From the sequence record MN158215: a DNA stretch of 51,448 nucleotides; one strand, 5' to 3'. The position numbers and the translations under genes were made by a program. The stretch comes from Escherichia phage BEK12B. The stretch's first letter is position 1. Each line of letters starts with the position of its first letter. Positions 33,315 through 51,448 of the stretch are shown piece by piece. The notes beneath the pieces were generated by a model that was given only the letters and a program-made list of their open reading frames with translations, made no database searches and was not told the origin of the DNA.

Positions 33315-34898
33315 ATGAATTTTTCGTTTGAAACCAATAAACTAACACCAAAACAAATTATAGAATTAGCTGATGCGCAAGGATTGTCTCCGGTGCGCGT
33401 GTCCATTCAGGCTAACGGATACCGTCAATCGTCCAGCTTTTGGGGTGGGGTTAATGATGTTAATAACGGAAACGATCGCTACCCTATAATTTCTCTTGGC
33501 AATGATGTTGATGTTGTTGGTAAGTTGGCGCGCAACATTGCTCGATCAGTTCAGTTCCCTGAATCATCGGCATATATGCATTTTATCGGATGTGTGTCTG
33601 CTGCAATGCTTGGACGCTTCACTGTTGAGTATCACGGAACGGATCAGCCGACCGCTCTTTATGTTGTCACAAGCCAGCCTCCTTCAACTGGTAAATCTGC
33701 CGTTAACAGCCTGGCGCTTGCTCCTATGGTTGCTGAAGTAGAAAGAATTAATGATCAGCGAAAGAAGGAACGAAAAAAGATTCAGGCAAAGTTGGCAGGT
33801 CTTGCAAAAGAGATGAAAAGCGAGCGATCTGGCGCTGACATGGAATCGCTATACCAGGAGAAAGAAGATCTTGAAGAAAAACTTGAAAAGATGTGTGACA
33901 TTGTTTTCCCTGTGTCCGATACCACGCCGGAAGGACTTGCAAGAATCAACAATCGCCAGGGTAACTTTGCTGTAATTTCAGACGAGGCAACGAGTATTAA
34001 CAGCCTTTTAGGTCTGACATATGCCAATAGCGAACGCAAAACAAACAGCGAACTTGTGCTGAAAGCATGGGATCACGGTCATGTTTCTATAGCTCGCGCA
34101 AACGCTGACAACAATATGAGTTTTAAAGCTCTTGGATGTATGGCGGTAATTGCCCAGGATGAAACAATCAATGCCATCATGGATGCAGGATCGCGAGGTA
34201 TCGGTGTAAGTGAGCGTTATTTGCTTGTGCGTGAGGAATCATTTTTAGGCCGTAGAAAGTTTGTTGATGATAACGGTGACTCTACTTATGAACCTGTTGA
34301 TGGGGAACTGAAAAGCCAATATTTCAAGCTGATCCATAACATAATGAGCGAATCAAACATCCAGCTTAAGATCAGCAAATCAGCAATGCGAGTGCTTAAC
34401 ATGGCTCGTCAGGAGATGGAACCGCATCTTGCTGATGGCGGAAAGTATTCGCATACAATGCTGCGAGGTGCGCTTGGCAAAATGGATAAGCAGGTGATCA
34501 GGATTGCTTCGGTTTTGCACACTATCCGCAATTGGTTTAATCCTGGTGGATACCCTCAGAAGTCTAAAGAGATTGAGGTTGAAACCGTTCAGGAAGCATT
34601 GCTGATGTTTAGCGAGTTGAGCAAAACATACATTAGCGCCGCAAACGCTTCTGGCTATGCTGGTGATGATGCTGAAATGGGTAAACTAATCGAGATCATC
34701 ACTCGACACGGCAAGGCTAATAAGGGAATCTTGAATGTGCGCGCCATATATGAGGCAGCACGAAAAGTTAAGCCTTTTGTTGGTCAGGCTGGCGTAATGA
34801 AGCGCATGGAAACGCAACTGCTTCCGATGCTTGAGGAAAGAAATTATATTTGTGTGATTAATGGCGTTGTTTTCGTAAATCCAACATTGCTGGGGTGA
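33315..34898 (+). CDS. P-loop protein of unknown function (possible replication-associated ATPase)
   Basis: 527 aa from MNFSFETN after RBS AAAAGGAG; Walker A-like SQPPSTGKSAVNS. Confidence 0.45.
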   Translation: MNFSFETNKLTPKQIIELADAQGLSPVRVSIQANGYRQSSSFWGGVNDVNNGNDRYPIISLGNDVDVVGKLARNIARSVQFPESSAYMHFIGCVSAAMLGRFTVEYHGTDQPTALYVVTSQPPSTGKSAVNSLALAPMVAEVERINDQRKKERKKIQAKLAGLAKEMKSERSGADMESLYQEKEDLEEKLEKMCDIVFPVSDTTPEGLARINNRQGNFAVISDEATSINSLLGLTYANSERKTNSELVLKAWDHGHVSIARANADNNMSFKALGCMAVIAQDETINAIMDAGSRGIGVSERYLLVREESFLGRRKFVDDNGDSTYEPVDGELKSQYFKLIHNIMSESNIQLKISKSAMRVLNMARQEMEPHLADGGKYSHTMLRGALGKMDKQVIRIASVLHTIRNWFNPGGYPQKSKEIEVETVQEALLMFSELSKTYISAANASGYAGDDAEMGKLIEIITRHGKANKGILNVRAIYEAARKVKPFVGQAGVMKRMETQLLPMLEERNYICVINGVVFVNPTLLG

Positions 34899-35925: not shown

Positions 35926-35950
35926 AAAGGAGGCGTTAAGCCTCCTTTTT
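35926..35950. terminator. bidirectional intrinsic terminator between plus-strand block and lysis cassette
   Basis: aaaggaggcgttaagcctccttttt, T/A runs on both sides. Confidence 0.6.
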
Positions 35951-36334
35951 GTTGCCTTTGCGGTAGGAAAAGTAAAGCATAGTCAAAAGACCACTGAAAA
36001 TCGCAGCGCAATAGATTATAGGATCGTACCATTTCCTTTGCTCACCCTGCACGACCTGGATTTTATCAGCCTTGATGGTGTTAGCCTGAATGGTTGACGT
36101 AGTGAAATCCTTCTTGCTTGAAGTGTCCACCTTATCAACCGCAGATTCCTTTATTGTGGTTTCCTGTTTTGTACTGGTGTCCTGCTTTGCGGTAACGCCA
36201 ACGGTCTGCTTTACGTTCTCAGCTCCTGCCTGTGCTGTGATTTCCGGTTTACTGCCGATTAATCCGGTCAGTGGCGTAACGCTTGAACATCCAGACAAAA
36301 TAACAGCGATCGCGATTATTGATAACTTTCGCAT
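35936..36334 (-). CDS. unimolecular spanin-like lipoprotein
   Basis: N-terminal lipoprotein signal with lipobox ILSGC and C-terminal transmembrane helix, directly after endolysin, as in T1 gp11. Confidence 0.6.
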   Translation of the reverse strand: MRKLSIIAIAVILSGCSSVTPLTGLIGSKPEITAQAGAENVKQTVGVTAKQDTSTKQETTIKESAVDKVDTSSKKDFTTSTIQANTIKADKIQVVQGEQRKWYDPIIYCAAIFSGLLTMLYFSYRKGNKKEA

Positions 36335-36336
36335 AA

Positions 36337-36828
36337 TTACAGATCCTTAATGCAATATTTAAATTCCACCGCGCGGCGGTTGCGTAAACCTTTCGAGAGT
36401 TCTTTCTTTCCGGTTTTAGGATTCGTGAATTTATCCCACCGCCATAACTGCTGGCACGCTTCCGGCAATCTGCCCTGATTAATCAGTTTGAGCATTGTCG
36501 AATTGCGGAATGCACCAACGCCAGCGTTAAAAGTGAAACTATACATCGCCGCTCGCATCGTGGCTGGGATTTCAACCTTCACGCGCTTGTCTACTTCATC
36601 CTTTGCCACCTTGATATGTTTTGCCAGTAGCGCATCGCATTCTCGCTTTGTGTAGGTCTTACCGATAATCACATCTTTTCCGGTGATTCCGGCGCATGCC
36701 GTCCAGACTCCGGCAATATCTTTATATGGCGTGTATCTGATCCCCTCAATTTCTTCAAGGAGTGGAGAAGTAAGAGCAAGCGCAGCACCGATAGCGACGG
36801 ACACGATGCTTTTTCTTGCGCTCATCAT
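36337..36828 (-). CDS. endolysin, phage lysozyme with N-terminal signal-anchor (SAR-type)
   Basis: [23 protein letters not shown] lysozyme catalytic region (Glu...Asp...Thr pattern) after hydrophobic Gly/Ala-rich N-terminus. Confidence 0.8.
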
Positions 36829-37040
36829 TTACCCCTGATTTCAATTGCTTTTTTAAAGTCACCACTATCAAGCGCCTTCTGGAAGGCTTTACTATCACGC
36901 CACCGCAGATAAGCGCCCCATACGCCGAAAATAGCCATCAATACGAAGCTGGCAATTGCAATTGCCGTTTGTCCTGTTACTGCTCCAGTGATTGATGCGC
37001 CGCCCGTGCCGGACGTTGCAGCGTTCAAAAAATCTTTCAT
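36825..37040 (-). CDS. holin
   Basis: 71 aa from MKDFLN after RBS AAAGAGGA; transmembrane segment and charged C-terminus; directly upstream of endolysin. Confidence 0.6.
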
Positions 37041-37102
37041 ATTTAGATCCTCTTTATTCAAATGTCAATAGTGATGATTGTATTTTAAACATTGTGCTGA
37101 AA

Positions 37103-37448
37103 NNNNNNNNNNNNNNNNNNNNNNNNNNNNNNNNNNNNNNNNNNNNNNNNNNNNNNNNNNNNNNNNNNNNNNNNNNNNNNNTCTTCAAGGAGTGGAGAAG
37201 TAAGAGCAAGCGCAGCACCGATAGCGACGGACACGATGCTTTTTCTTGCGCNNNNNNNNNNNNNNNNNNNNNNNNNNNNNNNNNNNNNNNNNNNNNNNNN
37301 NNNNNNNNNNNNNNNNNNNNNNNNNNNNNNNNNNNNNNNNNNNNNNNNNNNNNNNNNNNNNNNNNNNNNNNNNNNNNNNNNNNNNNNNNNNNNNNNNNNN
37401 NNNNATACGAAGCTGGCAATTGCAATTGCCGTTTGTCCTGNNNNNNNN
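37103..37448. other. N-masked gap containing fragments duplicated from 36762..37075
   Basis: three N runs (79, 153, 8 nt) separating exact copies of holin/endolysin sequence. Confidence 0.9.
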
Positions 37449-37576
37449 ACGTTGCAGCGTTCAAAAAATCTTTCATATTTAGATCCTCTTTATTCAAATG
37501 TCAATAGTGCTGAAAAAATAAATAAAAAAAGGAGACTTAAAAATCAAGCCTCCTTATAAGTTAATGTTTTATATGG

Positions 37577-37746
37577 TCATTCTACTGGCGAAAAAGTCAG
37601 ATAATAGCCGTGTAGTGGTGCGATAATCGCGCTACCTTGTCCGTCGCGGATCTCATACATCCCGCCAGGGATTGCTACCGACGTGTAAATCAGGCCGACG
37701 GTGTAGGGCAATTGCTTAGATGTGTTTCTGGTGCAACGTACTTTCA
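37577..37746 (-). CDS. hypothetical protein
   Basis: 56 aa from MKVRCTRNT, start adjacent to phosphoesterase stop. Confidence 0.3.
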
Positions 37747-37748
37747 TT

Positions 37749-38867
37749 TTATTTATCTGCCATTTCAGGATAAAACATAAAGCGTCCGATTTCGCCGTGT
37801 TCTTTGTCGTAAATGATAACCGCAGCACGGCGACGGGAACGCCAACCGCCTCGCGCGGCGTATGCGTCTTTAGCTGCCATCGTGCTATGTACTTCAACAA
37901 TGCCTAGCGATGTTTCTGTTACAGTCTGATGATGAAAATGCCCTACGTGCGCATACATAGTTTTTGAGTTTCCAAAGTCCTCCCGCCAGTCTGCTGCGCA
38001 CATCATTAGCAATGTTTCCGGCTTTCGGACGGTGTGACCGTGATGATATGCAAGGAATGTTTTTCCGTACTGCGTATGGTGAACCACTCGCGGCGATACA
38101 TCAACGTAAACGCGAGGCTCTTTTTCATATGCCGCCGCCATAGCTGCACGTAACCAGATCATGCCGCTTTGGTCATGGTTGCCCTCAATTATCTGGATCT
38201 CGACTTCTTTGTGTTTTTTGAGCATCAACTCAATGGCTCGACGGACGGCACGAATTGCAACGTAAACTAATTTTGCGTATCGGCTATCTTGATCCAATAC
38301 GTGACCGCTTGCAGGAGTTACCGCTTCCAGGCCGTCACTGTGAAGCATGTCGCCGCCAATCAGCAGCACTGCTTTCTCGCTGAACGGGGCGCAGGCCACA
38401 GCATAATCGAAAAAGTCATTCATTACCTTCTCTGCCGTTGATGTATCCCAATTCTCGCCGCATTCGTGCTTGTGCGCCATAGCTCCCAGGTGCATATCAA
38501 AAACGGGGTAAAGGGCAAGGCTTTCTCTGTATTTTATTGTTTCTTCTGGTGTCGGATCTACACGAGGTAATTCTTCGGTAAAAGCGTCCATAGCTGCGCG
38601 CATCAACGCTTCCAGTTGCTCTTTGTCCTTACTGGTCTTTGTCCATTTGAGGATCACGTTACCTTCTTTGTCGGTCATGACCGATTCGCCGTGAACACCA
38701 AAACCAGGCGTTCCTACAGTGGTTATTTTTCCCTGCTTTGCCAGTCGTGCCGCTCGGCGCTCGACGCTGCGAACATTCAGGCCGTATTCCTCAGCAATCT
38801 GTCGATAGCTCTTACCCTTTAATCGCTCATGCGTGAATTGCTCGTCGGTTATCTTGCTTTGACTCAT
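37749..38867 (-). CDS. metallophosphoesterase with N-terminal HTH domain
   Basis: calcineurin-like motifs DMHLG, GGDMLH, EGNHD, YHHGH, VGHFHH; N-terminal SYRQIAEEYGLNVRSVERRAARL helix-turn-helix. Confidence 0.7.
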   Translation of the reverse strand: MSQSKITDEQFTHERLKGKSYRQIAEEYGLNVRSVERRAARLAKQGKITTVGTPGFGVHGESVMTDKEGNVILKWTKTSKDKEQLEALMRAAMDAFTEELPRVDPTPEETIKYRESLALYPVFDMHLGAMAHKHECGENWDTSTAEKVMNDFFDYAVACAPFSEKAVLLIGGDMLHSDGLEAVTPASGHVLDQDSRYAKLVYVAIRAVRRAIELMLKKHKEVEIQIIEGNHDQSGMIWLRAAMAAAYEKEPRVYVDVSPRVVHHTQYGKTFLAYHHGHTVRKPETLLMMCAADWREDFGNSKTMYAHVGHFHHQTVTETSLGIVEVHSTMAAKDAYAARGGWRSRRRAAVIIYDKEHGEIGRFMFYPEMADK

Positions 38868-38966
38868 GATGTTTCTCCTATTGGTGCATTACGATACTAT
38901 ACATGATAGCGGTCGCAATGATAGCGGGTAGCGGAAGATATAACAAGCGCCACATGATAATAACCC

Positions 38967-39233
38967 TCATTTCTTGTAATATTTTTTAGGCTCGCGAACT
39001 TTTGCCATCTCTGCCTTGTAGTCAATTTTTGTTGGTATGGCTGGAACGCGTACCATCTTACGCGGCTTTTCCTTGAGGAAAGTCATTTTGCCGCCGCCGA
39101 TTACGCTGATGTCGGCAATATCAAAATATTGCGCGATCTTCTTTATGTCCTCAGCCATCCCCATTTCGTTTATATGTTGCCAGACTGCTTCACGCCCTTG
39201 CTCAACTCTCATGATGATAATATGCCTCCGCAA
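38967..39233 (-). CDS. hypothetical protein
   Basis: 88 aa ORF (true start possibly internal Met). Confidence 0.4.
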   Translation of the reverse strand: MRRHIIIMRVEQGREAVWQHINEMGMAEDIKKIAQYFDIADISVIGGGKMTFLKEKPRKMVRVPAIPTKIDYKAEMAKVREPKKYYKK

Positions 39234-39437
39234 ATTCTAATGGGTAGTGACCATATGCAACGCGAAGTAGAATCATTGCAGCGCCCCAATAAAGCTGCAT
39301 ATTGTTTTTCGTTCCACCTTTTACCGCCTCGCGTGCGGTTTTTTGCGCCTGGTCAAATGCTTTCTTGCTGTATACTACCATTTTTATTTCCTCATGTTTG
39401 TTTCGTTGAAATAATTATGCCCGACACAAGGCCGGGC

Positions 39438-51053: not shown

Positions 51054-51324
51054 ATATGGGTATGCAATATATGATGAGCAAGGTAGAAATGTTACTGGCC
51101 TTTTAACTCCAGTTTTTTTCTTGGATAAATTTACTCAATCATCTGGCAGTAAGACCTACTCAAACAGGCCTCCAGGTAAGTCGTTGAAAGCAATATATGT
51201 TGGAATGAATTCGTGGCGCGGAGGAGATCCTGGCGCTCCAAGTTTAGGTGTAAGTGGTGATACCGTTACATGGAGCGGACTTTCTGGATCTGACTCAAGA
51301 TATATATATACTTTTTGGGGGTAA
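51046..51324 (+). CDS. hypothetical protein, paralog family with 156..497 and 51327..
   Basis: 92 aa; N-terminal pattern shared with neighbouring ORFs. Confidence 0.4.
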   Translation: MAEYGYAIYDEQGRNVTGLLTPVFFLDKFTQSSGSKTYSNRPPGKSLKAIYVGMNSWRGGDPGAPSLGVSGDTVTWSGLSGSDSRYIYTFWG

Positions 51325-51326
51325 TA

Positions 51327-51448
51327 ATGTACGGGATGAGCATAAAAAAACCAGACGGATCATTGTGGTTAAGTCCAGATTTCACTCCTGTTAACCTTAT
51401 AGATAAAGGTAAAATATCAGCAAAAACAGGAACCGTTTTTAATACTTC
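51327..51448 (+). CDS. hypothetical protein, 3' end truncated by window edge
   Basis: ATG at 51327 directly after previous stop; ORF runs off the window. Confidence 0.3.
   Translation, partial: MYGMSIKKPDGSLWLSPDFTPVNLIDKGKISAKTGTVFNT

Follow-up and report, generated by a model that had tools for sequence, protein, structure and literature searches.

Lysis cassette of BEK12B and its relatives

The closest described counterpart of the locus analyzed here is the T1-type lysis cassette of the Drexlerviridae, in which holin (PF27028), endolysin (PF00959) and spanin (phrog_1804) genes follow one another behind a conserved intergenic region with a terminator. For repeated sequence of the kind found beside the cassette, the spontaneous tandem duplications of phage genomes, such as those in the classical duplication mutants of lambda and T4, can be compared.

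Escherichia phage BEK12B (MN158215) is a T1-like coliphage (Drexlerviridae, Hanrivervirus) with a complete genome of 51,448 bp; this whole stretch, read on one strand, is the window to which all coordinates refer. The genome is circularly permuted, and its ends (1-4 and 51445-51448) overlap by 4 nt (CTTC). A literature search found no paper on the BEK/BEC phages, and Rfam and tRNA scans of the whole BEK12B genome returned nothing. The lysis genes and the elements immediately upstream of them are as follows:

35936-36334, minus strand: Rz-like spanin of the unimolecular type, last gene of the lysis cassette (phrog_1804, E=5e-50)
36337-36828, minus strand: endolysin of 163 aa with a hydrophobic N-terminus (PF00959 Phage_lysozyme, E=1e-36; phrog_7), source of copy piece 1
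36825-37040, minus strand: complete holin of 71 aa (PF27028 Phage_T1_holin; phrog_2877, E=3e-34), source of copy piece 2 and of part of copy piece 3
37041-37102, minus strand: holin-proximal upstream sequence, intact, with the ribosome-binding site AAGAGGA and a conserved leader, identical to the siblings
37529-37555, minus strand: intrinsic-terminator-like hairpin with a T tract, which ends the upstream operon directly upstream of the insert site and is conserved in relatives
37577-37750, minus strand: small DUF7244 gene, upstream neighbor of the lysis cassette (PF23896, E=3e-27)

The Phage_T1_holin gene, the Phage_lysozyme endolysin gene and the gene for the Rz-like spanin directly adjoin each other in this order, which is the arrangement of a T1-type lysis cassette. 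Gene order, gene sizes, protein families and the conserved intergenic region with its terminator all agree with the cassettes of other Drexlerviridae, from which the authentic copy in BEK12B is no different; a partial second copy is present in the BEK12B record only.

Farther upstream, next to the DUF7244 gene, a gene for a protein of 372 aa (37749-38867, minus strand) has a full-length match to phrog_704, "DNA repair exonuclease." The same product has a weak N-terminal match of the helix-turn-helix or sigma-70 region 4-like type, which falls below the Pfam cut-off. Several records labelled UNVERIFIED and assigned to "Campylobacter phage" (MG0656xx) are 85-94% identical to BEK12B, and some of them have HNH_3 homing-endonuclease genes in the interval that separates the exonuclease-like gene from the holin gene; this interval is therefore a hotspot at which real insertions occur in this family.

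Sequence upstream of the holin gene

The preliminary description of this DNA regarded the sequence upstream of the holin gene as unknown, which our analysis contradicts: the 62 nt next to the ATG are intact in BEK12B, and the full 123 nt are given by identical genomes. As obtained from the comparison with BEK7, the full upstream sequence is CCATATAAAACATTAACTTATAAGGAGGCTTGATTTTTAAGTCTCCTTTTTTTATTTATTTTTTCAGCACAATGTTTAAAATACAATCATCACTATTGACATTTGAATAAAGAGGATCTAAAT, followed by ATG. This 123-nt region between the DUF7244 and holin genes was uninterrupted in all 16 phage records compared and in 10/10 contigs with an identical holin. In collapsed coordinates it occupies 37041-37163 on the minus strand, and it is almost invariant across relatives in Hanrivervirus and Warwickvirus. 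No consensus site emerged when the coding strand upstream of the holin gene was scanned for sigma-70 promoters, and a TTGACA hexamer at 37061-37066 lies too near the holin ATG for a standard -35 element. The N runs are not the reason that no holin promoter was detected.

Structure of the N-masked block

Only three N runs occur in the whole 51,448-nt genome, with a total of 240 N, and they lie within a block of additional sequence composed as follows:

37103-37515, no strand: extra block, 413 nt beyond BEK7, BEC3, BEK1-23 and the Logan assemblies, in one of 10 equivalent frames
37103-37181, no strand: N run 1, 79 nt
37182-37251, plus strand: copy piece 1, 70 nt, identical to 36752-36821, N-terminal coding region of the endolysin (codons 3-26)
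37252-37404, no strand: N run 2, 153 nt
37405-37440, plus strand: copy piece 2, 36 nt, identical to 36941-36976, transmembrane coding region of the holin
37441-37448, no strand: N run 3, 8 nt
37449-37509, plus strand: copy piece 3, 61 nt, identical to 37013-37073, covering the initial 28 nt of the holin gene and 33 nt upstream of it
37074-37096, plus strand (outside the block): 23-mer ATGATTGTATTTTAAACATTGTG, found in every relative and behind the first copy but missing behind the second

An N-masked insert with a partial second copy of the holin and endolysin genes is thus really present in the record, and its three N runs separate exact copies of 70, 36 and 61 nt, as had been described previously. 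The lengths given in that description were right, and the positions that it assigned to the source segments were shifted by +10, +2 and +2 nt, respectively. Its observation on the end of the copy was borne out: the last 8 nt are CAATAGTG, an 8-mer that also stands in front of ATGATTG..., at 37066-37073. Each copy piece has exactly two occurrences in the genome and none on the opposite strand, and exact repeats of 36-70 nt within 51 kb cannot be of chance origin. Because GTGCTGAAA flanks the block on both sides, its limits are ambiguous, and every frame between 37094-37506 and 37103-37515 is equally valid.

The transmembrane coding region of the holin contains a perfect 16-nt palindrome, GGCAATTGCAATTGCC, at 36951-36966 (in the copy, 37415-37430), and copy piece 2 is centered exactly on it (10+16+10 nt). 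This centering may be either a coincidence or a clue to how the piece arose.

The copy pieces span sites that are variable among the 10 contigs with the same holin. The non-identical relatives examined had either substitutions within at least one piece or no differences at the piece boundaries, and none of them reproduced the pattern of visible and masked sequence. Judging from this comparison, the copy pieces are BEK12B's own allele and that of no relative. An origin of the second copy in another relative was accordingly considered and rejected, as the mismatch maps of the 10 contigs do not fit the piece boundaries.

Comparison with uninterrupted genomes

Three siblings, BEK7, BEC3 and BEK1-23 (Drexlerviridae, Hanrivervirus; 51,031 bp in each record), were available for comparison, together with Logan assemblies of two sequencing runs. 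These runs match the BEK12B genotype and may not be BEK12B's own reads. Bases 1-25000 of the window were 100% identical to BEK1-23 and BEC3, and identity to BEK7 was likewise 100% over bases 1-20849, at which the BEK7 record stops. Over the whole genome, BEK12B and BEK1-23 have three differences: a SNP at 33859, the 4-nt overlap of the ends and the 413 extra nt.

When positions 37103-37515 were removed from the window, there were zero differences to BEK7 over 5,588 nt and zero to the Logan assembly of SRR11808712 over 6,216 nt. The Logan assemblies were also aligned directly, over 21,584 nt for SRR11808712 and 16,496 nt for SRR11808685; in both cases the sequence to the left of the block was 100% identical, and the sole difference to its right was a 23-nt gap. 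Both Logan contigs have a length of 51,061 bp (51,031 + 30), which would be expected for a circular path at k=31. A single lysis cassette with a continuous 123-nt intergenic region was found in BEK7, BEC3, BEK1-23 and both Logan assemblies. The block is thus missing from these independent assemblies of the same genotype, which are otherwise identical to BEK12B in the stretches compared, apart from the one SNP in BEK1-23.

The SNP at 33859 is non-synonymous and lies in the gene (33315-34898) for a DUF3987 helicase/primase-like protein of 527 aa. Residue 182 of this protein is E in BEK12B, BEK7 and QGH77590.1 (probably BEC3), and G in BEK1-23. The E182 variant was found in 13 contigs of at least 50 kb each, including several from Logan runs (SRR118086xx-87xx).

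A second record from the same submitters, BEBK14 (MN158214), is also labelled a "complete genome" and is linearized within the holin gene, ending in ...GTGATTGATGCA and starting with CCCCCCGTGCC.... The break corresponds exactly to window positions 36977-37012, the GC-rich stretch that is replaced by the 8-N run in the BEK12B copy, and the BEBK14 holin is annotated as a 114-nt stump. Two assemblies of one series are therefore broken at one spot, which suggests a weak point of coverage or assembly, not biology.

Geometry of the block and its right-hand junction

The offsets of pieces 1, 2 and 3 from their sources are 430, 464 and 436 nt, respectively, in comparison to an insertion length of 413 nt. 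The N runs between the pieces also disagree with the spacings in the first copy, being 153 vs. 119 nt for run 2 and 8 vs. 36 nt for run 3, where the true sequence is GC-rich and encodes glycine codons. Measured from the first base of piece 1 to the last base of piece 3, however, the second copy covers 328 nt, close to the 322 nt of the original. The gap lengths thus behave as estimates and not as lengths of real sequence; read literally, the 8-N gap shifts piece 2 out of the holin reading frame.

At the right-hand end, piece 3 joins CTGAAAAAAT directly, and CAATAGTG|CTGAAAAAAT is the sole non-wild-type adjacency in the block. In the first copy ATGATTGTATTTTAAACATTGTG comes next and is followed by CTGAAA, whereas the second copy runs straight into CTGAAA. 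This 23-mer is bounded by a 7-nt quasi-repeat (GTGATGA / GTGCTGA). The new junction was absent from all 16 phage records compared, which span 214-215 nt where the BEK12B query has 192, and a search with AATGTCAATAGTG|CTGAAAAAAT gave no match in viral, metagenome or genome contig collections.

A simple tandem duplication is excluded, since none of the three offsets equals 413 nt and the second copy lacks the 23 nt. The two units are not followed by the same sequence, and the structure is not one with a single new junction of the type b|a. Two readings had been offered in the preliminary description, a collapsed tandem duplication and an assembly join. For the former we found no support, given the skipped 23 nt and the discrepancy between offsets and insertion length; the latter is supported by the identical siblings and the two Logan contigs, which are single-copy and gapless.

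Origin of the block

According to our analysis, the N block most probably represents redundant scaffolded fragments of one locus, that is, an assembly join that was not collapsed. We consider such an artefact the most likely origin because genomes that are otherwise identical, as well as independent assemblies, carry one uninterrupted copy. The 413 nt would then lie outside the dominant genome of the phage and would be a second, fragmentary version of the endolysin 5' end, the holin gene and the holin leader, which an assembly, scaffolding or assembly-merging step may have set beside the finished copy without collapsing it onto that copy. The three visible pieces could be short redundant contigs or reads of wild-type sequence, and the N runs could be gap estimates derived from insert sizes, in which case the individual gaps would be wrong and the overall span nearly right. 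The loss of the 23 nt may have occurred when a piece ending in ...CAATAGTG(ATGA) was joined, at the 7-nt quasi-repeat, to a contig starting with GTGCTGAAA...; alternatively, the lysate may have contained a minor variant with this deletion.

The block resembles an uncollapsed overlap of contig ends, or a scaffold gap, in its irregular, estimate-like N runs, in its short exact duplicates that keep one order and orientation, and in its absence from identical siblings and independent assemblies. It differs from an ordinary join in a draft assembly in that the BEK12B record is labelled a complete genome and that the join bears an apparent 23-nt deletion.

Several features are not readily accommodated by an assembly artefact. 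The adjacency CAATAGTG|CTGAAA is not wild type, and De Bruijn assemblers seldom invent adjacencies, so some molecules may carry the junction. Furthermore, read pairs from wild-type molecules should not place piece 1 at +79 nt past the end of the left contig, as its true position is 351 nt upstream, and a graph built with a single k should not output identical k-mers twice. The placement of piece 1 and the survival of exact duplicates would, however, follow from an additional step such as patching or the merging of two draft assemblies.

The unusual adjacency could also derive from a minority variant in the lysate, with either a 23-nt deletion upstream of the holin gene or a rearranged molecule. 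We regard this origin, which is a sub-case of the assembly artefact, as possible but rather unlikely. The variant branch would have been strung after the wild-type branch, the bubble not having been popped, and the junction would be real but outside the consensus genome. The adjacency would be explained in this way without any invented sequence, and the 23-mer is indeed bounded by a slippage-prone quasi-repeat. However, a simple indel bubble does not account for pieces 1 and 2, which have wild-type sequence at a distance of 200-350 nt, and no plausible k explains a left contig that stops only 9 nt inside the shared flank. In such a variant, the junction would read CAATAGTGCTGAAAAAAT.

A second alternative is that BEK12B virions carry a real, complex duplication, with a second and possibly complete holin gene and a truncated 5' fragment of the endolysin gene, inserted behind the upstream terminator and in front of the authentic lysis cassette. 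Such a structure would have required either two template switches or a duplication with a subsequent 23-nt deletion at microhomology. In comparison to the tandem duplications of lambda and T4, the block is likewise a local repeat of a few hundred nt in direct orientation with microhomology at one junction; it differs in that its offsets depart from the insertion length, its second copy lacks 23 nt of the tandem unit, neither a compensating deletion nor a selective context is apparent and the BEK12B sequence is incomplete. The three pieces are colinear with the source locus in order, orientation and approximate spacing, the junction lies at a microhomology typical of slippage (GTG / GTG(A/C)TGA), and a true second copy would give positive gap estimates to the right of 37102, such as those present here. 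The N runs themselves would be expected where a repeat defeats short reads. The co-occurrence with BEK12A, which has the same sample number, would allow aberrant recombination, and the duplication could have originated from aberrant repair or template switching in a mixed infection with that phage.

Nevertheless, we consider a real duplication improbable. A structure other than a simple tandem requires two events or more; BEK7 and BEC3, otherwise identical across 51 kb, are without the block; the two runs of the same genotype give clean contigs of 51,061 bp; and the junction was found nowhere else in the collections searched. Moreover, the first copy is fully resolved and the second fragmentary, whereas assemblers usually treat a true 2x repeat differently, and if the N runs are read as true lengths, the copy is out of frame. 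The possibility retains some weight because the placement of piece 1 and the survival of the duplicates would also follow from a real rearranged molecule. Quite improbable, too, is the specific arrangement that would result, with a second holin gene lacking 23 nt of its native leader and a truncated fragment for the endolysin membrane anchor directly behind the upstream terminator.

Two further explanations have a negligible probability. One is the mis-scaffolding of BEK12A or another related phage, with the visible pieces shared and the Ns covering divergent parts. BEK12A (Warwickvirus; 52,716 bp, equal in length to BEK26) shares its sample number with BEK12B, and the two genomes have 122 exact matches of at least 31 nt; the ends of the BEK12B window (51265-51448) lie inside a 184-nt exact match, for which the co-assembly of a mixed "BEK12" lysate, in keeping with an assembly artefact, is a plausible explanation. 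In the lysis region, however, all exact runs common to BEK12A and BEK12B in the alignment are shorter than 20 nt, and exact matches of at least 31 nt are lacking throughout 36299-39428. The visible pieces are thus not shared, and cross-assembly with BEK12A was rejected.

The other is an insertion of foreign or mobile DNA, its non-phage parts masked by N, with GTGCTGAAA on both sides as a target duplication; an apparent 9-nt direct repeat does flank the block, and 9 bp is the size of the target duplication of the IS1, IS10 and Tn5 families. However, all of the visible sequence (167/167 nt) comes from the phage's own lysis genes, with order and orientation unchanged, the ends of the block are masked, and 404 nt are too short for a transposase; the reading as a transposon or insertion sequence is rejected because the content is self-derived. 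The flanking GTGCTGAAA is simply the GTG microhomology plus six wild-type continuation bases before the Ns, and a target-site duplication is not convincing.

Conclusion

In conclusion, the N block is most likely no real feature, and its identification is of use for flagging the record for curation. The main value of the finding is one of data hygiene: a publicly available "complete genome" contains 413 nt, including 240 N, that the phage most likely lacks. As long as it stayed in the record, the block would give rise to ORFs that do not exist, to a spurious holin/endolysin paralogue, to an incorrect genome length and to the mistaken impression that the control region of the holin gene is unknown, although the uninterrupted sequence is obtainable from the identical genomes of BEK7 and BEC3. 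Were the block real, a virulent T1-like phage would provide a modest example of duplicated lysis genes, and the second holin copy would alter holin dosage and the timing of lysis. The underlying biology of this locus is an ordinary T1-type lysis cassette behind a 123-nt intergenic region with a terminator.
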